Made by a program: the position numbers and the translations under genes
From: Escherichia phage vB_EcoM_JN03
Strand: one strand, 5' to 3'
DNA: 64,000 nucleotides
Sequence record: OR885871
Notes under the pieces: generated by a model
The model's database searches: none
Told to the model about the DNA's origin: nothing
What the model saw: the letters and a program-made list of their open reading frames with translations, nothing else
Shown: piece by piece, positions 3,573-46,803 of the stretch
How the letters are laid out: each line of letters starts with the position of its first letter
Position numbering within the stretch: the first letter of the stretch is position 1

Positions 3573-5072
3573 ATGTCTGAGATCCAAATAGTCAAAGTGA
3601 ACGAAGTTAGAATGCGGATCCTTGCCGAGGATTATATCCGTGAAGAACTCAACGATTACTTCAAATTTGAAGATCCTAATTTCCAACCGAATCCGTTCAG
3701 TAAATGGGACGGCGTAGTGCGGTTGTTCACAAAGAGTTCTGGGCTTATCGACATCGGCCTGTTATTTGAGGTGTTCAAATTCTGTAAGATGAACGGTTAC
3801 ACCATCAAATTAGATCCGGCCTTAAAATATATTCAAGATATTCCGGATGAAGAAATTCATGCGTTCATCGATACATTGAATGCGGTGTACCGAGACGAAA
3901 ACAAACAATATCAAAAAGCGATTGTCCGCGATTATCAATTTGATTCTGTTGCCACAGCAATACGCCAAAGCAGATGTGTCCTCGAAGCTGCCACGAGTGC
4001 TGGCAAATCCTTTATTTTGTACATCATGGCGCGTTACTACAGGCAACGCAGAGATGCCCTCGAAAGTAATCTGAGGACGTTAATCGTTGTACCATCCATT
4101 CATTTGGTGACTCAGTTGTATGACAACTTCGAAGAATATAGCCACGGGACAGAATGGAAACCATTGATGAATGTCCAGACAATATACGAAGGGGCAACGA
4201 AAGAGATTTTCAAACCCATAGTTATTTCAACTTGGCAAGGTATCCAGAACCAACCCAAAGAGTGGTTCCATCAATTTGGAGATATCGTCGTCGACGAAGT
4301 ACATACATCAAAATCAGATAAATTGTCTTACATCTTGAATAACTGTATTAACGCTGATCAACGTTTGGGAGTAACCGGAACCCTGGCGAATACAAAGGTC
4401 GCAGGGTTACAAGTCGTTGCTCACTTTGGCGCATATCATAAAATTATTACAGCGCGCGATTTAATCGATCTAGGATTTGCGGCGGACATCAATGTTAATA
4501 TGATTGAAGTCATACATCCTATGGCAGACTGTATTGAAATGCACGGTGCTGAGTATCAAAAGGAAATAGAATTCCTCATTGCTAACGAACGCCGCAATGA
4601 ATTGATAGCTCGAATGGCTCTATCTTTGAAAGGGAACGTCGCAGTAATGTTCGAACGTATCGATGCACACATGATGTTGGTTTATGAAATGCTATCGGCA
4701 GTCAAGAAAAACGTATTCGTCATCAACGGGGAAGTCAAGACAGAAGTTCGTAAACAGATTCAGGCTGCTATGGAAGAAGGGGAAGATATAACACTGTTAG
4801 CATCATATGGCACTATGCAACAGGGCGTATCTATCAAAAAACTCCATCATCTGATTTTGGCCCATCCCAGCAAATCTTATATCCGTGTTATACAGACATT
4901 GGGGCGTTTGATGCGTCAGCATTCCTCTAAGGATGTTGCGCGAATCTGGGACCTGGTAGACAACCTGCGCTACAACGGTTCTTACAACCATGCTCTCAGG
5001 CATTCTCATGAGAGATATAAATTTTATCTTATGGAGCGCCACCCTGTTAAAATGAAAAAAGTGGCGCTCTAA
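3573..5072 (+). CDS. uvsW: UvsW-like SF2 DNA helicase
   Basis: Walker A ATSAGKS, DEVH-type box VVDEVHT, C-terminal HPSKSYIRVIQTLGRLMR; blocks recalled from T4 UvsW (VISTWQGIQNQPKEW, ARIWDLVDN) are present. Confidence 0.85.
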   Translation: MSEIQIVKVNEVRMRILAEDYIREELNDYFKFEDPNFQPNPFSKWDGVVRLFTKSSGLIDIGLLFEVFKFCKMNGYTIKLDPALKYIQDIPDEEIHAFIDTLNAVYRDENKQYQKAIVRDYQFDSVATAIRQSRCVLEAATSAGKSFILYIMARYYRQRRDALESNLRTLIVVPSIHLVTQLYDNFEEYSHGTEWKPLMNVQTIYEGATKEIFKPIVISTWQGIQNQPKEWFHQFGDIVVDEVHTSKSDKLSYILNNCINADQRLGVTGTLANTKVAGLQVVAHFGAYHKIITARDLIDLGFAADINVNMIEVIHPMADCIEMHGAEYQKEIEFLIANERRNELIARMALSLKGNVAVMFERIDAHMMLVYEMLSAVKKNVFVINGEVKTEVRKQIQAAMEEGEDITLLASYGTMQQGVSIKKLHHLILAHPSKSYIRVIQTLGRLMRQHSSKDVARIWDLVDNLRYNGSYNHALRHSHERYKFYLMERHPVKMKKVAL

Positions 5073-29463: not shown

Positions 29464-31797
29464 ATGAGCAATGTAGACCTATTATCAAAATTTGGTTCGC
29501 TGTTGAAAGAAGCGGACACTCCTGTTTCTGTTGAAGCACCATTTGAAATCCGTGGGGAAATTACCCACAAACTGACTTTCCATCGCGGTCGCGCTAAAAA
29601 CTTCCGTTCCATCGGTAATGAATTCATGGAAATTGATTACCAACGCAATTCGGCAACCTTGGTTACATCCGATGACAATGGGGCGGGCAAATCTACAATG
29701 CTTGTTTGGCTGTTGTTCTTCGTTCTGTATAATGACACATACAGCAAGAAAGAAAAGAAAGCCGGATTAGTCAATTCCCAAAACAAAAAGGAATGCGTGG
29801 GTGAAGTTGAGTTCTCTACTCGCGGAAGTGAATGGAAAGTCCGTCGTGGTATCAAACCTGATTTCGTAGAAGTCTATCAGATGGTAGACGGTGAGTGGAA
29901 GAAGGTCGTGAATGATGCGGCCAAAGCCGACATGAACAAATATATCGTGAACCTGATTGGCGTAGACCAGAAGATGTTTGAGAACTCCCTGGTTCTGGGC
30001 AAAGAGAAGTTCATCCCATTCACGGAAATGTACACTGCCGACCGTCGCGCTATGGTAGAGACAATCTGGGATTTGGGGTTCTTCAGTCTGATGAATGAAG
30101 ATGTAAAAGCATCTATCAAGACAGTAACGAATGAACTCACGACGGTCACCAATGATTACGCCTTTCATGATGTGAATCTAAAAGGCCAGCAAGCGCAGTT
30201 GGAACAGATCAATAATTCCAATGCGATGATCCAGCAACAATCTGCGGATATTCTTGTCCAAGAGAAGGAACGTCTGAATAGCCTGAATTCAGATATCGGC
30301 GCAGTGCAGGAACAACTGACAGAGTCCCGTGCTCAAGACTCTAAATTGGAATCAGAATTATCAGATGTTCGAAATAGACTGAATGCCGAAATGAAAGGGG
30401 ATATCGATGCCATCAATGAAGAGTATGCGGCCAAAATCCAAGCGGTTCAGGATGAGGCTGATACCAAGGCTGAAGACTATGAGCGTATCGAGGTGTCTGA
30501 TGGCGAACGTTCATTACAAGAAATTCGGGAGAGAATGGCGGTAGTCGCGGAACGTAAAAATGATCTGGTCAGCCAACGGAATGCTAACCTGGATGAACTG
30601 AACAAAGCATTAGCGCGGCGTCAGCAGGGTGAGAACTTCCGTATCAAATTCGTAACAGAAATGGAAGGACATGAATCTGCCATCAAACGTTTCCACGATA
30701 TGGGCACTTGCCCTACGTGTACGCAATTAGTGTCGGACGATACCAAATCACGCATTGAAAGTCAATATTATCCACAAATCAGTGAACTGACTGACAAGAT
30801 TCTTCAGGTTGATACAGCCCTAGAAGAAGTGAATTCCCTGATTGAGAATTACAATGTCAGAGATTCAGAATTATCTTCTCAGATTTCGGTTATTGACAAA
30901 GAACTGGATGCTTTGCGCAATGAAATCCGAGAAGCGGAATCAGCGATCGCTACATTAAAACGCGACATCCAAGGATTCTATGATGTCGCTGCTGTTGAGA
31001 AAACATCTTTACAGCGGGAACAACAGTCCAAAATTAACGACGTCCTCAAGGCCGTAGACACCCGTTACGAAGATATCACGACGTCAATCCGTCAAGCGCG
31101 TGAGCAGCTCTCTAAGAGTATCAACGACACGGCTGATAAACTCACCAGCCTGAAATCACGCCGTGCCCCTCTGGAGGCATCCATTGCCGATTTAGAGCGT
31201 AAATTGGCGGTTAAGCCGACACCAACTGACGCCCTGGAAGGAGAGATCGCTCGCATCACGGCATTAATGGAAGATCTGAATGCGCGGCGCGTAGAGTTGG
31301 ATGAGAAATTGCAAGACCTGAACCATCTTCTGTTCTTCCTAAAAGATGATCAGACCAAGGCTCGAATTATCAGCCTGTATTTGCCTTTCCTCAATAGTAA
31401 AATAAACGAGTATCTTGAAGCACTCAATATGTTCTTGGATATTGCTGTTGATGATACATTTGAAATCACCATGAGCGCTGCAGGTCGTAAAGGGCAAAGC
31501 ATCTTCTCGTTATCTACTGGTCAGCGTAGTCGCCTGAACCTGGCTGTGACATTAGCTTTACGAGATGTTGCAAACCTCAAGGCGTCGGTGCAATGTAACC
31601 TGTTTGTGCTAGATGAAATCCTTGAGAACATGAGCGAGCGCGGCGTACAAGAATCGGTTGAGATGCTGAAGCATAAATTTGGCGGGAACAATCTGTTCGT
31701 TATCAGTCAACGCGAGCAGGAATTCCAAGAGTATTTCCAACACAACATCCGTTATGGTCTGCGTAATGGCATGACTGAAGTGATTAAGAAGGATTGA
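29464..31797 (+). CDS. 46: Rad50/SbcC-like ATPase (gp46-like)
   Basis: N-terminal Walker A DDNGAGKST, long coiled-coil middle with a CPTC zinc hook, C-terminal signature LSTGQRSRL and Walker B LFVLDE. Confidence 0.85.
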   Translation: MSNVDLLSKFGSLLKEADTPVSVEAPFEIRGEITHKLTFHRGRAKNFRSIGNEFMEIDYQRNSATLVTSDDNGAGKSTMLVWLLFFVLYNDTYSKKEKKAGLVNSQNKKECVGEVEFSTRGSEWKVRRGIKPDFVEVYQMVDGEWKKVVNDAAKADMNKYIVNLIGVDQKMFENSLVLGKEKFIPFTEMYTADRRAMVETIWDLGFFSLMNEDVKASIKTVTNELTTVTNDYAFHDVNLKGQQAQLEQINNSNAMIQQQSADILVQEKERLNSLNSDIGAVQEQLTESRAQDSKLESELSDVRNRLNAEMKGDIDAINEEYAAKIQAVQDEADTKAEDYERIEVSDGERSLQEIRERMAVVAERKNDLVSQRNANLDELNKALARRQQGENFRIKFVTEMEGHESAIKRFHDMGTCPTCTQLVSDDTKSRIESQYYPQISELTDKILQVDTALEEVNSLIENYNVRDSELSSQISVIDKELDALRNEIREAESAIATLKRDIQGFYDVAAVEKTSLQREQQSKINDVLKAVDTRYEDITTSIRQAREQLSKSINDTADKLTSLKSRRAPLEASIADLERKLAVKPTPTDALEGEIARITALMEDLNARRVELDEKLQDLNHLLFFLKDDQTKARIISLYLPFLNSKINEYLEALNMFLDIAVDDTFEITMSAAGRKGQSIFSLSTGQRSRLNLAVTLALRDVANLKASVQCNLFVLDEILENMSERGVQESVEMLKHKFGGNNLFVISQREQEFQEYFQHNIRYGLRNGMTEVIKKD

Positions 31798-31799
31798 AC

Positions 31800-31973
31800 A
31801 TGAACTGGGATCATCTGTGGTTGGCTATCAGTGTCTTTATGTTCTTTGATGCGTTGTTGGGAACGTACGAGATGAGTAGGGAGTCCAGAGTCGGGGTGAT
31901 GGTTTGTTGTTCCCTTATCGGCGTGGTATCCCTTTATTTCGCTATTGGGTTTGCCGCAGAGATCTTCAAATGA
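31800..31973 (+). CDS. small membrane protein, about 57 aa (absent from the ORF track)
   Basis: ATG 3 nt after the gp46 stop with AAGAAGGA RBS; hydrophobic MNWDHLWLAISVFMFF...GVMVCCSLIGVVSLYFAIGF; stop overlaps the next ATG (ATGA). Confidence 0.35.
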   Translation: MNWDHLWLAISVFMFFDALLGTYEMSRESRVGVMVCCSLIGVVSLYFAIGFAAEIFK

Positions 31974-32299
31974 AAGTTGTCCACTTCAAGAAGGAACCAT
32001 ACGACGTCTACATTGGCCGTCCTGGCAAATGGGGAAACCCGTTCGAGGTCAAAGACCACGGGCGGGGAAACTGTATTGAGTTGTTTGAAGACGACTTGTA
32101 TGTGCGCCTGATTGAAGGGGATATCACCGAAGATGAACTCCTTGAATTAGATGGAAAGACCTTGGGATGCTGGTGTAAGCCGCGCCCATGTCATGGAGAT
32201 GTTTATGTCAAAGTGATCGGTCGTATTAAACTATTCCGTAAGTTGGGTAAATCTTTTACTGAATATTTGAGACAAACATATGTCAGAAGAGAAAGATGA
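31970..32299 (+). CDS. DUF4326-like protein
   Basis: GRPGKWGNPF near the N-terminus and GCWCKPRPCHGDV match what I recall as the DUF4326 signature. Confidence 0.45.
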   Translation: MKVVHFKKEPYDVYIGRPGKWGNPFEVKDHGRGNCIELFEDDLYVRLIEGDITEDELLELDGKTLGCWCKPRPCHGDVYVKVIGRIKLFRKLGKSFTEYLRQTYVRRER

Positions 32300-32564
32300 A
32301 ATTCAGATTGCTTGTGATATCGCTGTCGAGTTATGGAATCAGCGAAACAAACATTATCAGGTGACGTTGACCCCAAAGCGTTATCTAGAGCAAGGTGGCT
32401 TAATAGTCGTTGATGCCGTGTTAGGTTTCAACAAATATACTGACATGCAAATCTTGGACGGGGATTTCACTATTGCTTCCAATACAGCTTGGGATGATCC
32501 TATGGAATTTGTCTACGGTTGGTTGGAATGCATAGAGGAATCATACCATCTGATCTACGAATAA
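32280..32564 (+). CDS. hypothetical protein, 94 aa
   Basis: ATG start overlapping the upstream gene; terminator follows. Confidence 0.45.
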   Translation: MSEEKDEIQIACDIAVELWNQRNKHYQVTLTPKRYLEQGGLIVVDAVLGFNKYTDMQILDGDFTIASNTAWDDPMEFVYGWLECIEESYHLIYE

Positions 32565-32566
32565 GG

Positions 32567-32600
32567 TGAAGGGCACTAAATATCACGTGCCCTTTATCTT
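32567..32600 (+). terminator. rho-independent terminator
   Basis: GGGCAC-loop-GTGCCC hairpin followed by TTTATCTTTT. Confidence 0.6.
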
Positions 32601-32661
32601 TTAACCCTGTCAGGAGGCTCCAGCGAGCTGCAAGTCGACAAACCACATAAGGAACGCCATC

Positions 32662-33276
32662 ATGACGATGACAACGTTGAAGGCCATGGCCTTGTCCGTG
32701 ACCTTTACCATTGCCAGCGGGAATGTGCACGCTTCCCAAAATACAAGTCAATGTGTTTATGATTTCTCTGAGCAACAACTTAATACGCTGGCAACTGCCT
32801 ATCACATAGGCAAGACGCAAGACCTTGGTTATACTCTGGCCGCCATATCTTGGCGAGAGAGCCGCGCTGGTGAAGATGTAGTGTCAATGCGATACGGTCT
32901 CAAGGCGGCCAACATGGGAGCCTTTCAGAACAAGGTGAAGACAGTTGGTGATCGCGAGGGTTGTAAGAATCGCAAGTGCTATGCCAATGTCGCCATCAAG
33001 TTGTTGACCGACCAAGAATATGCCGCGCAAGCCGCCCTCGATGAGATGCAGTTCTGGCTGACCTATCACAAGCAGAATGTACGCAAGTCTCTTTCCTCTT
33101 ACAATGCTGGCTTCGCCCGTAATCCCGCATCGAACGCCTATGCCGCCGACGTCGTGAAGAAAGCTAAATATCTTCAGAAATGTGTGTCCTTCAAAGGGCG
33201 TTCCATCTCTGAGGTGGATCCTCAGGTGATCGCCATGAACAAGCGCACGATAGAGAAACTGAAGAGGACAAGATAA
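32662..33276 (+). CDS. secreted lytic transglycosylase-like protein (SLT motifs)
   Basis: Signal peptide MTMTTLKAMALSVTFTIASGNVHA; family-1 LT-like motifs ES (ISWRESRAGE), GxxQ (MGAFQ) and YNAG; elevated GC and different codon preference from neighbours. Confidence 0.55.
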   Translation: MTMTTLKAMALSVTFTIASGNVHASQNTSQCVYDFSEQQLNTLATAYHIGKTQDLGYTLAAISWRESRAGEDVVSMRYGLKAANMGAFQNKVKTVGDREGCKNRKCYANVAIKLLTDQEYAAQAALDEMQFWLTYHKQNVRKSLSSYNAGFARNPASNAYAADVVKKAKYLQKCVSFKGRSISEVDPQVIAMNKRTIEKLKRTR

Positions 33277-33914
33277 TGAACATCACTCCATCCCAGACCG
33301 GATATGAACATATCTTGGTCTTCATTGCCCTACAGGGTGCGAAGGAAGGCATCATCGTATCCGAGTATTCAGGTACGGTTCGCCTTGCTGACTACGTCGC
33401 GCCGGAGGCATTCATTAAGAAGTGCATTGATGCATGGTGCCTCTATGCCCTCGGCACGTATCCTGCTCCTCCTGATGGCGAGCTGTTGTTTACCGTACCG
33501 ACTCCGGCTGCTGGCGATACAGACGCGATCTTTGCCGATATGCTGGCCAAGGGGTATCTGGTGTATGACATAACTCACGATGTCTATTCCTTCACCTCCC
33601 TGAACACTGTGTTTGGGTTCACCATAACCTCTGAAGCCAACATCCCTGACTGGGGTATCTTGGCCTGGGGTGTTGACGGCCTGGGCGCAACCTACGCAAC
33701 GTCTGATGTTGGTCCTGTTCTGATTGATGAGGGTGTAACCATGGAGCAGTACCTTGCTCAGTTCCCCCAACACAACATCACGGGTAGCGATATCATTTTG
33801 GTCCAGCCTGGCGCTGTTGCCCTCCCCCGCCTCGTGGACGGATGGAAGCCTCAGCTGAAGGACATCATTGCAGGGATCAGGTCCCATATTCCTGTGGTGA
33901 ACCCAACACCGTAA
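33276..33914 (+). CDS. hypothetical protein, 212 aa (GC-rich islet)
   Basis: TAATG coupling to the transglycosylase gene; shares its GC-rich composition. Confidence 0.5.
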   Translation: MNITPSQTGYEHILVFIALQGAKEGIIVSEYSGTVRLADYVAPEAFIKKCIDAWCLYALGTYPAPPDGELLFTVPTPAAGDTDAIFADMLAKGYLVYDITHDVYSFTSLNTVFGFTITSEANIPDWGILAWGVDGLGATYATSDVGPVLIDEGVTMEQYLAQFPQHNITGSDIILVQPGAVALPRLVDGWKPQLKDIIAGIRSHIPVVNPTP

Positions 33915-33928
33915 AATAATTCAATAAA

Positions 33929-33972
33929 AGGGGCTTTCGCCCCTTTACTTCTTCAATATCCTTCCCTATACT
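33929..33972 (+). promoter_or_regulatory. terminator hairpin fused to early promoter (CTTTAC, N17, TATACT)
   Basis: AGGGGC-tttc-GCCCCT hairpin then TTTACT 33944-33949, 17-nt spacer, TATACT 33967-33972. Confidence 0.55.
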
Positions 33973-34020
33973 TCATTCCATAAGCAGTACGACACCAACT
34001 TGAAACGAAGGAACTATATT

Positions 34021-34380
34021 ATGGCTATCACCACAAAAACTGAATTGAACGCGATCCTGAAAGAAGCTGGCTTCGGTAGTATCAAACGCCAGGGCAAGGT
34101 TTTACGCGATGGCGGTAAAATCGTAAAGGGTATCATGTTGGGAAGTACTGGCCCGTTGAGCATCAGCTCCCCTCAGTATGACAATCTTCGTAAACTGGCG
34201 CGTGAACTTCTCCAAGAAGACCTCCATATCACGACGCAAGAAACCAATTATGTGGTTTTGGAATGCAACAAATTCATCGTCAGCCTTTACATCTGCAGCA
34301 CCCGCTCATATCCGGTGTCTGAAGGTTATGACCCAATGTATCTGACCCATTATGCTCAGGTTACTGTCAAAGTAAAATAA
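34021..34380 (+). CDS. hypothetical protein, 119 aa
   Basis: GAAGGAA RBS; terminator-like hairpin downstream. Confidence 0.45.
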   Translation: MAITTKTELNAILKEAGFGSIKRQGKVLRDGGKIVKGIMLGSTGPLSISSPQYDNLRKLARELLQEDLHITTQETNYVVLECNKFIVSLYICSTRSYPVSEGYDPMYLTHYAQVTVKVK

Positions 34381-34464
34381 TCAAATTCAACGGGGGGCTT
34401 CGGCTCCTCTTTTGTTTTCGCTAATTAAGGAAAACCGCACCGATTTATTATCAGGAGAATTACA

Positions 34465-36852
34465 ATGGCCATCCCATCTTTCTTGAACTTTCTTGAAGAG
34501 TCTAAACAATTAGACGAAGCGTTTAACTCATCCCCGTATGAATTGACATTCGGCAAGAAGAACGCTGGTGACATTTTCTTCACATTTGTTGATGAAGACG
34601 AAAAAGAATTCCGTATTCAATTCTATACCCCACAAGGTCTAGGCAAGAATGTTCGCCAAGTCTTTATCGGTCAGAAGCGTGGTTCCACATATCCCGATGC
34701 CATCGGTCGTTTCAAGAATCCAATGCGTGTTATCGCATCCATGATTGAAGCAACAAAGCAATTCATGGCGACGCCTTTGGGGAAAACCATTGACGGCTTT
34801 GCAATTAACTTCTCCAAGAAAGCATTGGAGCGTGGTGTTACCCTCCTGCCGAAGATTATCCGTCAGTCCGGCCTGAAGCAAAAGCTCAATGTCATGGACC
34901 TGACGTATACCCCTATCCCTGATCGTGCATTCGTATGGGTTGTGCGTAAAGGCAAGGATCCTGCTCAGGTATTCGATGGTCCGAAAATGAAAGGTGTCAC
35001 ATGGGATGATCCGGACAAAGTCGGTGACGTCCCGGTTCAGAACAATACTCCGGATGTGGGAGTTGTGGCTGGTTCTTCTGAAATCGAAGTCAACCGCGAT
35101 GACAACGGTTGGAAACTCACCAAAGCTAGTCGTACTCAGCCTATGCTGGTCTGGTCTGGTAAAGAACGTGGGCGGACTATTACCGCCAATATCGCACCTC
35201 ACGCGGATATACCTGGGGTGTATGCTGGTAGTATCATGAACGAGAAACGGATCCGCGCTCAATCTCCAGACGCTATTGTACGCCAACTGGGATTACCGCA
35301 GATCCCTGTGAATATTCTGAATGATTTCACCAAGCAGTCGTCCATCTTCTGGAAAGAGATGACGGGGGATTCTGGAAAAATAGACATGCAGAATTTGCCA
35401 AAAACAGGATCTGTGGATGACTTACGAAATCAGGGTTATATTGCTCGCCTTCTGGGGATTGTAGACACATATGCTCCACAACAGGTCGGTATGTATGCAG
35501 GTGAAAAACTAACACGAATCGGCGCGGGCAAATATCGTACTTCGGGTGGTCTGGACATTCAGGTTTATTTCTGGGGAATTGTCAACGGAAAACTTTCTGT
35601 AGAAGTAGTATCAGATTTGTCTGGTCATGACCAACTTATGCTGGAAGGAGATGTGAAAAACGCCGCTTATGAAATAGTGGGCGCAATCTCCCGTGCAGCC
35701 GATTCTCAATTTGCTGGAGAAGTAGAATGCCGTGTGGTTCCGATCAATGGTGCCCCATATCCGATTCAAAAAATTTCCCGTTCTCAGGGATATTCTTACG
35801 TTGATTGTGGTTCTTTCACATTGAAGATCGCTGACGCTCTGCTGAATCGGTTTACCTTGGGCAAGGCGGTCAAACTTGATCTGATGAAAGAGTTTCCTCG
35901 TACAACATTCAAAGTCCGCTATGATTGGCGTGGAAAAGATACTCTGTTGGTTCAATCTTCCGACGAGCGTACTATCTTTGGTGAAATCAACACCAATTCC
36001 AGTGAAAATGCAGTGATCACTGCAAACATCAAAGTGCCAAGCAATGCTAAATTTTTTGGTGAAACCGTTCATGGCTTCTCTGTAGCGTGGGATTTCCAGT
36101 TCCCTGCTGGTAGCAAGTTGCAAGCCGCAAGATTCGTTACCAACGTAACTTACGATTTTGATCGAAACAAAGCCAACATCACCACCATGTTGGCTGAAAA
36201 TGGTCGAAATGTAGTAGACAGCAATGGATATGATATTTCGTTGTCTGTCAAATCAGTGCAAGATGCATTGGATGAGATTTCTCGACGCCTGAAAGACGCG
36301 GCTTCGCAACTGAGCCACCTCAGTTCATCAAACTATAACCCTAACAATCTATTCCTGAATGACATCACTGTCAGTAAATTTGGCGCAATTATGTTCCAAG
36401 ACAAAGATTTGGCACAGTCCAGGAACCGCACGGCAGTCATTGATGCTCTGGCTCGGGCTAAAGATCAGGCTGCTGGAGGTAAGAATGCAGGTGATCTGGC
36501 CACCTATGCCGAATCCATTCGTGACAGCGCTCCTAATGGACGAGATCTGGATTGGCAGGTATACACAGCCAGTAATGGTACAGTTCTGAATGTTGCTTGG
36601 GATATCACTTTCCGTCGCAATACGACCGAAGGAGCATATCGTGAATTCAAGGATCAGATCAACCGTGCCAACCAATACCTGCAAACGGTATACAACGACG
36701 CGAAATCTAAAGGCTATAATCCTACCGTGCCAAATCTCATGACTCTTGAACGCGCTCGCCAATCCGACGAATGGGCTATGAGTAATGGCGATAGTGCATA
36801 CAGTGAATATGAACAATCGCTGGGCGGTAATCTTCAGATTAGTCTGAAATAA
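34465..36852 (+). CDS. large hypothetical protein, 795 aa
   Basis: AGGAGA RBS; contains LGLPQIPVNILNDF, echoed at the C-terminus of the next-but-one protein. Confidence 0.65.
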   Translation: MAIPSFLNFLEESKQLDEAFNSSPYELTFGKKNAGDIFFTFVDEDEKEFRIQFYTPQGLGKNVRQVFIGQKRGSTYPDAIGRFKNPMRVIASMIEATKQFMATPLGKTIDGFAINFSKKALERGVTLLPKIIRQSGLKQKLNVMDLTYTPIPDRAFVWVVRKGKDPAQVFDGPKMKGVTWDDPDKVGDVPVQNNTPDVGVVAGSSEIEVNRDDNGWKLTKASRTQPMLVWSGKERGRTITANIAPHADIPGVYAGSIMNEKRIRAQSPDAIVRQLGLPQIPVNILNDFTKQSSIFWKEMTGDSGKIDMQNLPKTGSVDDLRNQGYIARLLGIVDTYAPQQVGMYAGEKLTRIGAGKYRTSGGLDIQVYFWGIVNGKLSVEVVSDLSGHDQLMLEGDVKNAAYEIVGAISRAADSQFAGEVECRVVPINGAPYPIQKISRSQGYSYVDCGSFTLKIADALLNRFTLGKAVKLDLMKEFPRTTFKVRYDWRGKDTLLVQSSDERTIFGEINTNSSENAVITANIKVPSNAKFFGETVHGFSVAWDFQFPAGSKLQAARFVTNVTYDFDRNKANITTMLAENGRNVVDSNGYDISLSVKSVQDALDEISRRLKDAASQLSHLSSSNYNPNNLFLNDITVSKFGAIMFQDKDLAQSRNRTAVIDALARAKDQAAGGKNAGDLATYAESIRDSAPNGRDLDWQVYTASNGTVLNVAWDITFRRNTTEGAYREFKDQINRANQYLQTVYNDAKSKGYNPTVPNLMTLERARQSDEWAMSNGDSAYSEYEQSLGGNLQISLK

Positions 36853-36903
36853 GTCATAGCCCCTTCGGGGGCTAAATACATCAAAATCCTTAGGAGATCC
36901 ACG

Positions 36904-37449
36904 ATGAAACCGTTTATCGAATATTTTAAAGAACAAGCTCAACAACCGCAAACACATGGCGGCATACAAGGCAAAAGTGTAACCATCACCAAACAGGCCG
37001 ACGGAACCCAATGGTGTACTGGTGCCACCGTAACCCAGATCACTCCAGATAATCAGGCCGACATCTATAATCTGGAATTGACTAATGGCAACACCATCAA
37101 AGTGAAGCTAACTCCAGACCAGACCCACGGCATTACCCAAGGCCAAGAAGTCGTTGCCGTCCATGATGGGTTTGAATTCTTCTTCGGCAAGTCGGCTGAC
37201 AAAGGTCAGGTTACTGAAACGGAAGGCTGGCGTTTCGTCGGTGACCGTGGCGCTCATATTCTGATGTATGACGCAAAAGTTGGCGGTGCCTCCACTATCC
37301 TTCGCAGTCCAACAGATCGAACCAAATTTGTTGGTGGTCTCATCAACGGCAGAAAAATTTTGGGTAATTCCCCAGAAGAACTGGCGGCAAAATTAGGTCT
37401 TCCAAAAATTCCTGATAATTTATTAAAATCATTTTTTGGTAAAAAGTGA
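36904..37449 (+). CDS. hypothetical protein, 181 aa
   Basis: AGGAGA RBS; C-terminal LGLPKIPDNLLKSF motif. Confidence 0.5.
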   Translation: MKPFIEYFKEQAQQPQTHGGIQGKSVTITKQADGTQWCTGATVTQITPDNQADIYNLELTNGNTIKVKLTPDQTHGITQGQEVVAVHDGFEFFFGKSADKGQVTETEGWRFVGDRGAHILMYDAKVGGASTILRSPTDRTKFVGGLINGRKILGNSPEELAAKLGLPKIPDNLLKSFFGKK

Positions 37450-37504
37450 TTACAAAATACAATCCCCCTAAATACAGGGGGATTTTCTTTTAGGGGTAAA
37501 TATC

Positions 37505-37858
37505 ATGGTCAATGCGAGTATATTCATCAACCGTGGACTGCTTGCTATAGCCCACTCTCATGCCCTCCACTTCGTTACAACGTCCTATGCCAAGCACAAG
37601 GCGCTCGGGGAGTTCTACGGGGAACTGGAGGACTTGCTGGACACCTTTACGGAAGCGTATATTGGTGCGGGAGGTATATACATTCCAGGATTCGAGAACA
37701 TCAAATTGTACAATCCTGAACCGATATCGTATATCAACAGCGTGGTCATCGACGTTAATGGGATCTACAATCAGTGTGATAGTCATCTTCAAAATACGCT
37801 TGACGAAATCAAGACTCTGTGCTATCAAACGATTTACAAACTGAAGCAATTGTCTTAA
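37505..37858 (+). CDS. hypothetical protein, 117 aa
   Basis: ATG after a terminator-like hairpin with AGGGGT RBS. Confidence 0.45.
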   Translation: MVNASIFINRGLLAIAHSHALHFVTTSYAKHKALGEFYGELEDLLDTFTEAYIGAGGIYIPGFENIKLYNPEPISYINSVVIDVNGIYNQCDSHLQNTLDEIKTLCYQTIYKLKQLS

Positions 37859-39931: not shown

Positions 39932-40008
39932 AGTTCACATAGGGCGGTACACAACACCCCGCCGAATGAAAAGTGAAACGACCCAACTACATTATGAGGA
40001 ATTACATC

Positions 40009-40497
40009 ATGGCTACTACCAAAACTCTGATCACCAACGGCACCATCTCTTTTGAACTGAACACCGAAGTTGCAAAAGTTGAAATGTTCCGCATCGCTCA
40101 GGCAGCTGGCTTCACTGGTGGCAAAACTTCCTTCATGAATCTGCTGAACGGCAAAGTGAAAGCGACCAACGGCTTCACCCTGGTAGAGCAGGTTGTCGTA
40201 GACAAAGCCGTGGTTGCCAAGACTGCTGACAAGGTTGGCATGCTGAAAGACCTGGGCCATGACATCCACGTTGTCGAAGCGAACACCGAAACTTACGGCA
40301 CCATCGTAGTCGGTAAAGGTCGCATTCAGCTGAACCCGCTGAACAACGGAACCTTCTCCGTGATGGTATTCCCGAAAAAGGGTTATGACAACAGCGATAT
40401 CGTGAAAGCCGCTGGCGGTGAAGCGAAATCCCAGTATGTCAAAATGGGTAAACTGAGCGCCGACGCAGTAGAAACTCTGGTGAACAAACTGGCTTAA
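40009..40497 (+). CDS. abundant-type hypothetical protein, 162 aa (strongly optimised codons)
   Basis: GAGGAA RBS 7 nt upstream; own early promoter; codon usage like gp32 and gp45; no recognisable domain. Confidence 0.6.
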   Translation: MATTKTLITNGTISFELNTEVAKVEMFRIAQAAGFTGGKTSFMNLLNGKVKATNGFTLVEQVVVDKAVVAKTADKVGMLKDLGHDIHVVEANTETYGTIVVGKGRIQLNPLNNGTFSVMVFPKKGYDNSDIVKAAGGEAKSQYVKMGKLSADAVETLVNKLA

Positions 40498-40805: not shown

Positions 40806-41600
40806 ATGGCCATTCTAAAACTTGGCAACCGAGGTTCTGAAGTCAAAGCACTTCAACAAAGCCTCAACAAAATCGGTTTCTCCCTTACAGCCGATGGCAT
40901 ATTTGGTAAGGCAACAGAGAATGCTGTCAAATCCGTTCAGGCAGGTGCTGGATTGGTTATTGATGGTATTGCTGGGCCAAAGACCTTCTATGCTATCCGC
41001 AACGCTGGAGACGCTCATCAGGAACATCTGACCGAAGCGGACTTGGTTGACGCAGCACGTGAACTTGGTGTTGAGCTGGCCAGTATGAAAGCTGTGAATC
41101 AGGTAGAATCCCGTGGCACAGGTTTTACCAAAACTGGCAAGATCAAAACTCTGTTTGAGCGCCACATCATGTACAAAAAGGTGACGGCCAAATTCGGGCA
41201 AGCAAGAGCCAATGCTCTGTACCAACTCTACCCAACATTGGTTAACCCCAATTCTGGCGGGTATATCGGCGGAGACGCGGAGTTGGAACGCCTTCAGGGT
41301 GCAATCGCCCTTGACGAGGACTGCGCTTACGAGAGTGCTTCCTACGGCCTATTCCAGATCATGGGGTTCAACTGCCAAATCTGTGGCTATTCAAATGCCA
41401 AAGAGATGTTCACTGATTTCCTGACTGGTGAACGCGCTCATCTTCTGGCATTTGTGAAATTCATCAAAGCTGACGCCAATATGTGGAAAGCCCTGAAGAA
41501 TAAGAATTGGGCCGAGTTTGCTCGTCGGTACAATGGTCCGGCATATGCGAAAAACCAGTATGATACTAAACTGGCGGCAGCATACAAGAGTTTCTGCTAA
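40806..41600 (+). CDS. endolysin: peptidoglycan-binding domain plus muramidase-like catalytic domain
   Basis: N-terminal PG_binding_1-like LKLGNRGSEVKALQQSLNKIGF...DGIFGKATENAVKSVQ; C-terminal domain with GLFQIMGFN resembles DUF3380/GH108-type muramidases. Confidence 0.7.
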   Translation: MAILKLGNRGSEVKALQQSLNKIGFSLTADGIFGKATENAVKSVQAGAGLVIDGIAGPKTFYAIRNAGDAHQEHLTEADLVDAARELGVELASMKAVNQVESRGTGFTKTGKIKTLFERHIMYKKVTAKFGQARANALYQLYPTLVNPNSGGYIGGDAELERLQGAIALDEDCAYESASYGLFQIMGFNCQICGYSNAKEMFTDFLTGERAHLLAFVKFIKADANMWKALKNKNWAEFARRYNGPAYAKNQYDTKLAAAYKSFC

Positions 41601-46416: not shown

Positions 46417-46803
46417 ATGTATCTGAACACACCAGCCGTATTAGAAGCCACCATCTCTTTCCCTATCCAAGGCCTGGCGAAGTCCAGAGCGTTCCTTAAA
46501 CAAGTCCCCTTTGCGTTTAACGTCCACGGGGAGAGATACCCGCGCTCTATCCTGCGTGCCCTGCGTGATGCCCTGCGTAACGGGGCGGCGCTGACCAAGG
46601 AAGAGTTGCGATCTAAAGAAGTGCACATGATCGACCCGGAACTGTTATCTGAAGAACCAGAACTGTACCAAGATTTCCAAAACGACGCCCGTAAAGCTCA
46701 GCTGATGTACGAGAACGACCAGCTGATGTTCAAGAAGGGCGATGACGCTCTGTACGTGGTAGACAAGGGCACAAACCTGCCTCTGGTACTCTTCATCAAG
46801 TAA
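46417..46803 (+). CDS. hypothetical protein, 128 aa
   Basis: GAAGGA RBS. Confidence 0.5.
   Translation: MYLNTPAVLEATISFPIQGLAKSRAFLKQVPFAFNVHGERYPRSILRALRDALRNGAALTKEELRSKEVHMIDPELLSEEPELYQDFQNDARKAQLMYENDQLMFKKGDDALYVVDKGTNLPLVLFIK

Follow-up and report, generated by a model that had tools for sequence, protein, structure and literature searches.

Allele replacement between phage subfamilies accounts for a GC-rich gene pair encoding a predicted exported transglycosylase-like protein and a DUF7270 protein in a Kuttervirus genome

In a Kuttervirus (Ackermannviridae) genome, two overlapping genes, termed here gene 1 and gene 2, stand out from their neighbors by base composition and codon usage, which raises the question of whether the phage has newly gained them. 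A previous sequence-only reading of the window (the whole 64,000-nucleotide stretch of DNA analyzed) had taken them for a recent horizontal acquisition and had assigned a secreted lytic-transglycosylase-like protein to gene 1. We found both open reading frames (ORFs) as described, with the stop codon of gene 1 and the start codon of gene 2 overlapping in TAATG; gene 2 is translationally coupled to gene 1. At this locus, the genome is 99.9% identical to that of Salmonella phage SPTD1. The GC-rich patch is real and can be accounted for: it is an ordinary mosaic, mostly known already, and carries no newly gained function. The features of the locus are listed in Table 1.

Table 1. Features of the two-gene islet and its surroundings, with positions in the window.
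Feature	Position	Strand	Description
Strong hairpin	32563-32600	+	Between the upstream genes and gene 1; RNA fold -20.4 kcal/mol, z = -6.25
CTAAATA late-promoter core	32576-32582	+	In the loop of the strong hairpin
5' leader of gene 1	32587-32661	+	Nearly invariant across four genera
Gene 1	32662-33276	+	204 aa, pI 9.6; predicted exported SLT/GH23-like peptidoglycan lytic transglycosylase; T4 Vs.1 orthologue (phrog_600)
Recombinant segment	32723-34008	+	Aglimvirinae-type allele within Kuttervirus backbone, from informative sites
Second CTAAATA motif	33164-33170	+	Within the 3' part of gene 1, 106 nt upstream of gene 2
Gene 2	33276-33914	+	212 aa, pI 4.3; DUF7270 protein, virion protein
Intrinsic-terminator-like hairpin	33927-33946	+	RNA fold -13.5 kcal/mol, z = -5.35; closes the two-gene unit

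Windowed GC and codon calculations confirmed the GC excess of the pair and its preference for AAG, GAG and GCC. The GC content is 0.501 for gene 1, 0.537 for gene 2 and 0.520 for the pair, against 0.447 for the window. Among sliding windows of the same length, the value of the pair (z = 3.3) is reached by 0.1%, all of which overlap the pair, and the islet forms the highest GC peak of the window. Gene 2 lies above every sliding window (z = 3.2), whereas gene 1 alone is milder (z = 1.9), its value being reached by 3.9% of windows. In genes 1 and 2, respectively, AAG accounts for 0.72 and 1.00 of AAA plus AAG, GAG for 0.75 and 0.63 of GAA plus GAG, and GCC for 0.69 and 0.33 of the Ala codons; these shares rank at or near the top among 75 ORFs. 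The GC content at third codon positions (GC3) is 0.59 for gene 1 and 0.61 for gene 2, compared with an expected 0.466 ± 0.033 (p ≤ 2e-4) upon resampling, in which the protein sequence was kept and codons were drawn from the window's own usage. Two further ORFs (39994-40497 and 46417-46803) have a GC3 equal to or above that of the pair, which is thus extreme but not unique.

Comparison with related phages revealed the origin of this anomaly. The gene pair of the window shares only 76%-77% nucleotide identity with the typical Kutterviruses EP75 and Vi01, against 91%-95% for the flanking gp46 and 85%-91% for the primase gene. In contrast, the Aglimvirinae phages Coodle and MK-13 are 70%-71% identical in the flanks, but 94%-97% in gene 1 and 90.5%-91% in gene 2. 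The islet allele is thus 90%-97% identical to Aglimvirinae phages (Limestonevirus and Agtrevirus), and the flanks show the reverse affinity. Subfamily-informative sites gave the same picture, with 167 Aglimvirinae-type versus 12 Kuttervirus-type sites in the islet (185 sites in all are given for the window allele), against 12 versus 420 in gp46 (Fisher p = 1e-118). Islet identity is bimodal among 283 matching phage records, 265 of which cover at least 80% of the islet. The affinity of the segment is opposite to that of both flanks, with breakpoints within 32553-32722 and at about 34008, and the allele type switches abruptly, where the base composition also steps. Such opposite affinity points to allele replacement by homologous recombination: the resident allele gave way to that of a related, GC-richer phage subfamily (about 50% GC), and hence the anomaly in GC and codon usage. 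We found no mention of an exchange at this locus in the literature searched.

The exchange did not bring a new gene. The pair occupies the same position in Kuttervirus, Taipeivirus, Limestonevirus, Agtrevirus and Yersinia phage CAU_YEP3, and both its synteny and the TAATG overlap are kept across all four enterobacterial Ackermannviridae genera examined, which speaks against a new acquisition. Moreover, the segment is 3%-10% diverged at the nucleotide level from the sampled Aglimvirinae, so the exchange is not very recent. Of the proposed recent horizontal acquisition, the horizontal exchange of DNA therefore stands, whereas the novelty of the genes and the recent date do not. A moron, that is, an independently acquired promoter-gene-terminator insertion, was also considered and rejected, as the pair is not absent from relatives and lies at the same site in all those examined.

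Judging from composition and allele distribution, we infer that the transfer ran from Aglimvirinae to Kuttervirus. The donor would have been an Aglimvirinae-type phage, Limestonevirus- or Agtrevirus-like, with a genome GC of about 50%, and the imported allele would have retained the donor composition, giving rise to the GC and AAG/GAG excess. Aglimvirinae alleles of the pair have a GC of 0.50-0.54 on a background of 0.50, and Kuttervirus-type alleles one of 0.466-0.485 on 0.445-0.452; gene 2 of the window fits the Aglimvirinae codon model, and gene 1 is intermediate. The slight excess of even the Kuttervirus-type alleles over their background, together with the late-promoter motif upstream of the pair and the further ORFs of high GC3, would suit selection without any exchange, for example codon optimization of late genes to host usage. 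However, GC3 of the same two genes is only 0.46-0.55 in typical Kutterviruses, convergence upon the Aglimvirinae type at 167 of the 185 informative sites is implausible, and the sharp boundaries match the compositional step. We thus regard selection as a very improbable source of the anomaly.

A bacterial origin fares even worse. The promoter-gene-terminator architecture and a GC of about 0.52 against 0.447, as if from a GC-richer donor, might suggest a moron-like cassette newly gained from a bacterial genome, adding a periplasmic transglycosylase new to the phage. But every relative examined has the pair at this site, the nearest neighbors are all phages, and close homologues all reside in phage records or phage-sized contigs. 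A motif scan of 185,579 bacterial and archaeal species, with one genome per species, returned a single relative, 35% identical, on a 178-kb contig; its neighborhood there resembles a T4-like phage, and it is probably phage-derived. Such a cassette is exceedingly improbable, and replacement by a phage allele remains our reading of the locus.

The borders of the exchanged segment coincide with conserved non-coding elements. The strong hairpin upstream of the pair probably terminates transcription from the preceding genes and, with the motif in its loop, forms the start of a late transcription unit; putative late promoters are annotated at the orthologous positions in the SPTD1 and LIMEstone1 records. 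In Taipeivirus, the stem is kept via a G-T wobble and the loop reads CTAATTA. Given that CTAAATA is not enriched in the window (7 found versus 6.6 expected), the motif alone proves nothing, and the promoter calls rest on position and on the annotations of others. The second copy, which the SPTD1 record lists as a late promoter, does not differ between the two allele types; it could serve as an internal late promoter or be a by-product of conserved Ala-Lys-Tyr codons. The T4 late-promoter core TATAAATA has three sites in the window, none of them close to the islet.

In a 16-kb Kuttervirus-Limestonevirus comparison, the leader of gene 1 ranks in the top three 100-nt windows for conservation (0.97 versus a mean of 0.76). 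RNA folding of the leader gave no stable structure beyond shuffled controls (z = +0.96), an Rfam search of 32300-34500 returned chance-level matches only and none for the leader, and no repeats of its sequence were found elsewhere in the window. The leader and the first 60 nt or so of gene 1 make up the block 32553-32722, which contains no subfamily-informative sites; the 5' crossover must therefore fall there. The 3' crossover lies at or just past the terminator hairpin, of which the stem is invariant and the loop variable among 8 phages, and the equivalent of which is annotated as a factor-independent terminator in the LIMEstone1 record. Recombination would thus have used the near-invariant leader/signal-peptide block on one side and the vicinity of the conserved terminator (about 34008) on the other. 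Altogether, the islet is likely a conserved Ackermannviridae transcription unit, running from the hairpin with its late-promoter motif through gene 1 and gene 2 to the terminator, a grading that we give to the mosaic and exported-enzyme explanation as a whole.

Sequence and structure comparisons identify the gene 1 product as a divergent SLT/GH23 lytic-transglycosylase-like protein and the orthologue of T4 Vs.1, with which it shares 31% identity over 165 residues (BLASTP E = 8e-19). The phrog_600 profile covers it over 173 of 178 profile positions (E = 1e-58). As the sequence-only reading had pointed out, the ES, GxxQ and YNAG motifs of family-1 lytic transglycosylases are present, as E66-S67, G86-A-F-Q89 and Y147-N148-A-G150, the last preceded by S146. 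E66, Y147, G150 and Y160 are invariant in 88 diverse homologues, among which E66 is the sole invariant acidic residue; it is also invariant in alignments of 16 and 12. In homologue alignments, S67 and G86 are each at least 90% conserved, and Q89 is variable. The Pfam SLT profile (PF01464) matches gene 1 at 20.5 bits (E = 3.7e-4), below its gathering score of 21.3; nevertheless, both the family profiles and the fold support an SLT domain. All 16 close homologues match PF01464 at E ≤ 0.1, and 46 of the 88 family members at E ≤ 0.01, the best at 2.8e-12. An AlphaFold2 model (pLDDT 86.8) was compared with the PDB via Foldseek: the best 29 matches are all lysozyme-like, and the first 24 comprise a GH23 chitinase and the lytic transglycosylases MltD, MltE and Slt. 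The ten best have probabilities of 0.99-1.0 and target-normalized TM scores of up to 0.62, although their E-values are weak, starting from 1.3e-2. Among solved structures, the type III secretion transglycosylase EtgA (8urn) comes closest by sequence profile, at E = 3.7e-7 with the 88-sequence family profile. E66 aligns with the Glu-Ser of the EtgA AIAWNES motif, the Glu of which is catalytic, and Glu66 is the predicted catalytic residue of gene 1. NCBIfam gave no useful match for gene 1, gene 2 or their neighbors.

In many Ackermannviridae records, the orthologues of gene 1 are called RegB endoribonuclease. We rejected this identity, as BLASTP against T4 RegB gave E = 0.19 and no meaningful alignment; moreover, at E ≤ 0.1, Pfam yields only SLT and a weak DUF3836 on gene 1. 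The T4 regB gene adjoins vs.1, and the two genes are both labeled RegB in phage kaaroe; on the gene 1 orthologues, this label is most likely a transfer error. These should be annotated as Vs.1-like SLT-domain proteins.

The N-terminus of gene 1 is compatible with the secretion signal proposed earlier. Reading by eye, we found K7, a hydrophobic stretch at residues 8-19 (AMALSVTFTIAS; Kyte-Doolittle 1.63 over 12 residues, moderately hydrophobic) and V-H-A preceding S25, so that residues 1-24 are probably a signal peptide; residues 1-28 of the model have a pLDDT below 50. A signal-like N-terminus occurs in every aligned homologue, including T4 Vs.1 (A-H-S), and four cysteines are conserved within the Ackermannviridae proteins, which fits an extracytoplasmic protein. 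Gene 1 would accordingly be exported via the Sec pathway and released by signal peptidase after V-H-A. Once in the periplasm, the enzyme would cut the glycan strands of peptidoglycan with E66 as its single glutamate, in the lytic-transglycosylase manner of GH23 family 1 enzymes, as deduced from fold, motifs and family knowledge. Its most likely role would be local or auxiliary wall remodeling of the infected cell rather than that of the main endolysin. Indeed, gene 1 is, as claimed, distinct from the endolysin, which is encoded by ORF 40806-41600 (phrog_1224, E = 2.9e-137). That it lies outside the lysis cassette carries little weight, since the lysis genes form no cassette in the phage records compared.

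Alternatively, gene 1 might be a signal-anchor-release (SAR) muralytic enzyme, kept inactive in the inner membrane until depolarization frees it to act as a second endolysin. Its N-terminal stretch is weakly hydrophobic and rich in Ala, Ser, Thr and Gly, and the Felixounavirus homologue, annotated as a putative lysin, adjoins rIIA/rIIB a few genes from the spanins. Nevertheless, the stretch is short (about 12-17 residues), a conserved V-x-A of the kind usual at signal peptidase I sites comes after it, and the phage possesses the dedicated endolysin at 40806. A SAR enzyme is therefore decidedly unlikely, and a cleaved, exported protein is the likelier reading.

Gene 2 is a plain member of DUF7270 (PF23934), with no difference from the family; the profile matches at 375 bits against a threshold of 27 (E = 1.1e-112), over positions 1-212 of 212. 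Its product is 97% identical to LIMEstone1 ORF085, an "unknown structural protein" of this family found in virions by mass spectrometry, and would thus be acidic, reside in the cytoplasm and finally become part of the virion. The N-terminal 80 residues or so resemble a winged-helix fold. A profile search against PDB sequences gave no match with E < 1, and a BFVD fold search returned the protein's own family only.

For gene 1, the virion mass-spectrometry data are in conflict, as the orthologue was found in Sajous1 and not in LIMEstone1. Given this conflict and the early-to-middle synthesis of T4 Vs.1, the roles suggested in the sequence-only reading, namely DNA injection, exclusion or envelope remodeling, stay candidates. 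CsCl-purified Sajous1 virions yielded 31 spectra for the orthologue gp211, a poor fit with a purely periplasmic protein. The protein could be a virion-carried, wall-piercing enzyme for DNA injection, loaded with DUF7270 rather than periplasmic. The gp211 spectra are comparable to those of neighboring confirmed structural proteins, gene 1, behind a late-promoter motif, shares a transcript and translational coupling with the gene of a confirmed virion protein, and the two products carry opposite charges (pI 9.6 and 4.3). On the other hand, the cleavable-signal-like N-terminus and the four cysteines point to export, at odds with cytoplasmic virion assembly; the protein went undetected in LIMEstone1 virions; and the Sajous1 list includes clear contaminants, for example SSB and thymidylate synthase, to which a very basic secreted protein sticking to particles or debris could be added. 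Furthermore, T4 Vs.1 belongs to the early/middle products, its RNA being classed as early and its protein as middle in a 2022 study, and these phages already have a gp5-type tail lysozyme. We thus consider a virion-borne enzyme unlikely. In the enterobacterial Ackermannviridae examined, the two genes are always adjacent and translationally coupled, and they were exchanged between subfamilies as one unit. A bolder proposal is that the basic Vs.1-like enzyme and the acidic DUF7270 protein form a co-adapted functional pair, in which DUF7270 may escort, inhibit or load the enzyme, providing a second, virion-associated wall-opening activity, at which the Sajous1 data hint. We give this proposal little credence; if true, it would be the first function for the Vs.1 family, whose members are found in over 2,000 phage genomes, T4 among them. 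A mosaic origin, a Vs.1-like exported enzyme from gene 1 and a virion protein from gene 2 are together the best explanation of the locus, and likely the correct one.

In summary, these findings leave the current understanding unchanged, but they indicate that a local GC and codon anomaly in a virulent phage can mark replacement by a sister-lineage allele and not gene gain. The Vs.1 family, large, apparently exported and probably catalytic, is a reasonable target for knockout and enzymology. As in phage modular exchange generally, a discrete module of genes with conserved non-coding blocks at either end was swapped between genera. Kuttervirus-Agtrevirus recombination has been documented for tailspike genes (PMC11721090); the module described here is not a host-range determinant. 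Inter-subfamily exchange in Ackermannviridae extends beyond tailspikes, at conserved non-coding boundaries. The Limestonevirus papers PMC4372400 (phiPD10.3 and phiPD23.1) and PMC6336734 (PP35) contain no usable entry for the pair.

The SLT similarity of T4 Vs.1 was noted in 2006 (PMC1524935), and apart from this domain note and the 2022 expression class we found no function for it in the literature. Vs.1 homologues occur in 2,140 phage records, and the family comprises 819 clusters at 50% identity. Gene 1 and T4 Vs.1 have in common their size, the signal-like N-terminus and the E-S, G-x-F-Q, S-Y-N-x-G and Y motifs. The Ackermannviridae proteins are extended at the C-terminus by about 30 residues and contain the four cysteines, both absent from T4 Vs.1; the context differs as well, in that vs.1 lies between regB and vs, and gene 1 follows gp46/gp47 behind a late-promoter motif, coupled to DUF7270. 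With the Pfam SLT/GH23 family, gene 1 shares the predicted lysozyme-like fold and the family 1 motifs, but it represents a divergent branch of the family, as the sub-threshold Pfam score and the limited matching within its own family indicate. EtgA, which is exported via a Sec signal peptide, is likewise a small single-domain enzyme and aligns with gene 1 through Glu-Ser, G-x-x-Q and Y-N-A-G. However, the two are only about 13% identical in structural alignment, and gene 1 has no secretion-system partner here. We thus make no claim of membership in the EtgA subfamily and regard the phage-borne proteins as a separate family.

The window at this locus is essentially the same as deposited records: 32000-34500 shares 99.9% identity with Salmonella phage SPTD1 (Ackermannviridae, Kuttervirus) in a database nucleotide match, and 271 other phage records match it at lower identity. 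The arrangement follows the usual Vi01-like order, running from the late sigma factor gp55 through the recombination nucleases gp47 and gp46, three small ORFs, gene 1, gene 2, a small variable ORF, a 795-aa protein and more small proteins to DNA primase and endolysin. The gene 1 stop and gene 2 start overlap as TAATG. As the sequence-only reading had claimed, the pair is elevated in GC and shifted in synonymous codons. It forms the top GC peak of the 64 kb (sliding-window z about 3.3; gene 1 by itself is less extreme, z = 1.9), with GC of 0.501 for gene 1 and 0.537 for gene 2 against 0.447 for the window, and the AAG, GAG and GCC fractions of both genes are top or near-top among 75 long ORFs. 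Their GC3 is 0.59 and 0.61, respectively, compared with 0.466 +/- 0.033 (p <= 2e-4) expected from resampling codons of the window's own usage with the protein sequence fixed. Given that two other ORFs equal or exceed these GC3 values, the pair is extreme, not alone.

Coordinates of the features at and around the gene pair
Feature	Position	Strand	Details
ORF named 'holin' elsewhere	31794-31973		59 aa
Conserved leader block	32553-32722		gene 1 leader and first 60 nt
14-bp hairpin, CTAAATA in loop	32563-32600	+	-20.4 kcal/mol, z = -6.25
Gene 1	32662-33276	+	204 aa
Gene 2	33276-33914	+	212 aa
GC-rich hairpin, then T-rich tract	33927-33946	+	closes the unit
Small ORF in variable slot	34021-34380		phrog_13016
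Downstream genes	34465-37858		795, 181 and 117 aa
ORF	39994-40497		phrog_3764
ORF adjoining glutaredoxin	46417-46803		128 aa, phrog_32429

The anomaly had been ascribed to recent horizontal acquisition. However, the pair occupies the same position in every relative examined, namely Kuttervirus (EP75, Vi01, Sajous1 and allotria), Taipeivirus (0507-KN2-1), Limestonevirus (Coodle and LIMEstone1), Agtrevirus (MK-13) and the unclassified Yersinia phage CAU_YEP3, and is therefore not an insertion. The exchange itself is upheld by nucleotide identity, in which the affinity of the window flips at the islet from typical Kuttervirus to Aglimvirinae.

Nucleotide identity of the window to Kuttervirus (EP75, Vi01) and Aglimvirinae (Coodle, MK-13)
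Gene	EP75	Vi01	Coodle	MK-13
Flanking gp46	91%	95%	70%	70%
Gene 1	77%	76%	94%	97%
Gene 2	76.5%	77%	90.5%	91%
Flanking primase	91%	85%	71%	71%

At informative sites, which tell the two subfamilies apart, gp46 is Kuttervirus-type at 420 and Aglimvirinae-type at 12, whereas 32723-34008 is Aglimvirinae-type at 167, with just 12 of the Kuttervirus type (Fisher p = 1e-118). The leader block holds zero informative sites, because it is identical in both subfamilies; it must contain the 5' crossover. The 3' crossover lies at or just past the conserved terminator, near 34008. Composition splits along the same line: GC of genes 1 and 2 is 0.466-0.479 and 0.476-0.485 in Kuttervirus-type alleles (local background 0.445-0.452) and 0.50-0.51 and 0.53-0.54 in Aglimvirinae alleles (background about 0.50), while the local background of the present allele is 0.447. 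In Aglimvirinae background codons, AAG is preferred (62%) and GAG is far commoner (42% vs 22%). Islet identity is bimodal across 283 matching phage records. The class with at least 90% identity comprises 65 records, covering all Dickeya and Shigella phages, several Escherichia phages and a minority of Salmonella Kutterviruses (allotria, SW16-7, Se-H/J and SS9 among them); another 212, most Kutterviruses plus Taipeivirus, fall at 60-80%. In the simplest reading, an Aglimvirinae-type allele would have replaced the resident allele in one Kuttervirus sublineage, a direction we infer from composition and allele distribution. Such a transfer would postdate the subfamily split, and the 3-10% of nucleotide divergence that is left shows that it did not happen very recently. 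The GC and codon anomaly is explained by the replacement of one phage subfamily's allele by that of another, with conserved sequence at the boundaries.

In the variable slot that separates the terminator from the 795-aa gene, the phrog_13016 ORF shares 99-100% identity with Yersinia phage CAU_YEP3 and SPTD1; EP75, Vi01, Coodle, MK-13 and allotria have unrelated sequence there, and this seems to be a second exchange adjoining the islet, later than the first. The phrog_32429 ORF (GC 0.52; GC3 0.65, the window's highest) occurs as a full-length copy in only about 20 of the 219 phage records that match. This ORF is a genuine accessory insertion, and fits the idea of a horizontally acquired islet better than the gene pair does. 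The phrog_3764 ORF has a GC3 of 0.62, and no other ORF of the window comes closer to Aglimvirinae in codon usage. It is 87% identical to EP75 (94% for its flanks) and only 77% to Coodle, and could be a further segment that is variable or mosaic.

The leader block, which takes in the start of gene 1 that codes for the predicted signal peptide, is near-invariant in Kuttervirus, Limestonevirus, Agtrevirus and Taipeivirus, between which neighbouring genes share only 65-75% identity. It matched no Rfam family, and no stable RNA fold was found in the conserved leader; two further 100-nt patches are equally conserved in a 16-kb Kuttervirus-Limestonevirus comparison. Across phages, the closing hairpin keeps an invariant stem while its loop varies, a pattern that speaks for a real structure. 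Other annotators' records call the orthologous sites late promoter and terminator. CTAAATA, the putative late-promoter core, is by itself not enriched in the window; it lies in strong-hairpin loops at 32576 and 37468, and directly after a hairpin at 36872. At these hairpins, a terminator and a late promoter appear to be fused as one putative element.

Gene 2 is a full-length member of the known family DUF7270 (E = 1.1e-112). Its source-named homologues are all from phages, most others lie on phage-sized contigs, and one more member, from a Serratia phage, came out of a fold search. Gene 2 shares 97% identity with LIMEstone1 ORF085 (22.75 kDa), which was detected in virions by mass spectrometry (4 peptides, 17% coverage) and belongs to the cluster ORF78-85 of structural proteins of unknown role (PMC3296691). 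Together with gene 2, the downstream genes, the 117-aa one labelled 'starvation-inducible regulator', are the counterpart of this mass-spectrometry-confirmed cluster, which is also abundant in Sajous1 (gp214, 196 spectra). The cluster sits amid DNA-metabolism genes.

The proposed transglycosylase likeness of gene 1 was borne out. It matches phrog_600 (E = 1e-58) and scores 20.5 bits against Pfam SLT, just below the threshold of 21.3. In its AlphaFold2 model (pLDDT 86.8; residues 1-28 disordered), the 29 best PDB fold matches are all lysozyme-like, ranks 1-24 being a GH23 chitinase and the lytic transglycosylases MltD, MltE and Slt; EtgA, a type III secretion transglycosylase, ranks 32. An exhaustive profile search gave 819 clusters, mostly of 160-200 aa proteins. 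A profile built from 88 of these matches EtgA (E = 3.7e-7), and 46 of the 88 members match Pfam SLT (best 2.8e-12). E66, Y147, G150 and Y160 are invariant in all 88; E66 is the sole invariant acidic residue, the pattern expected of the single-glutamate mechanism of lytic transglycosylases. In all homologues, T4 Vs.1 included, a short charged segment at the N-terminus leads into a hydrophobic stretch and then a small-x-small motif, and four cysteines are conserved among the Ackermannviridae proteins; export is therefore likely.

For the role of gene 1, the evidence from virions, timing and context conflicts; we favour periplasmic wall remodelling or an auxiliary muralytic role. A virion-associated role, the main rival, draws on 31 spectra for the orthologue in CsCl-purified Sajous1 virions; however, the same list includes obvious contaminants, and the orthologue is missing from LIMEstone1 virions by mass spectrometry. 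T4 Vs.1 is expressed early as RNA and in the middle class as protein, and the Felixounavirus homologue lies beside rIIA/rIIB, close to spanins. Upstream, the 59-aa ORF has two hydrophobic segments, and the records of EP75 and MK-13 name it 'holin'; it matched no PHROG or NCBIfam family, and the content of its slot differs among relatives.

Many Ackermannviridae orthologues of gene 1 carry the name "RegB". Since gene 1 shows no similarity to RegB (E = 0.19), that identity was rejected; in some T4-like records both regB and the Vs.1 relative bear the label, and the name is thus most likely an annotation-transfer error. In a motif scan of one genome per species (185,579 bacterial and archaeal species), the sole relative was at 3797-4465 of Flagellimonas marina contig NZ_JBHSCL010000010.1. 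A macro-domain ORF resembling T4 Tk.4 is among its neighbours, and at 178 kb the contig is on the scale of T4-like phage genomes; the locus is probably phage DNA inside the assembly. By translated search, 2,140 phage records carry a relative, with T4, T2, T6 and Felixounavirus among them. Gene 1 is a member of the known Vs.1-like SLT family, whose remaining interest is that it is very widespread yet has no assigned function. The T4 relative is Vs.1 itself, adjoining regB (31% identity, E = 8e-19), and its resemblance to SLT was pointed out in 2006 (PMC1524935).
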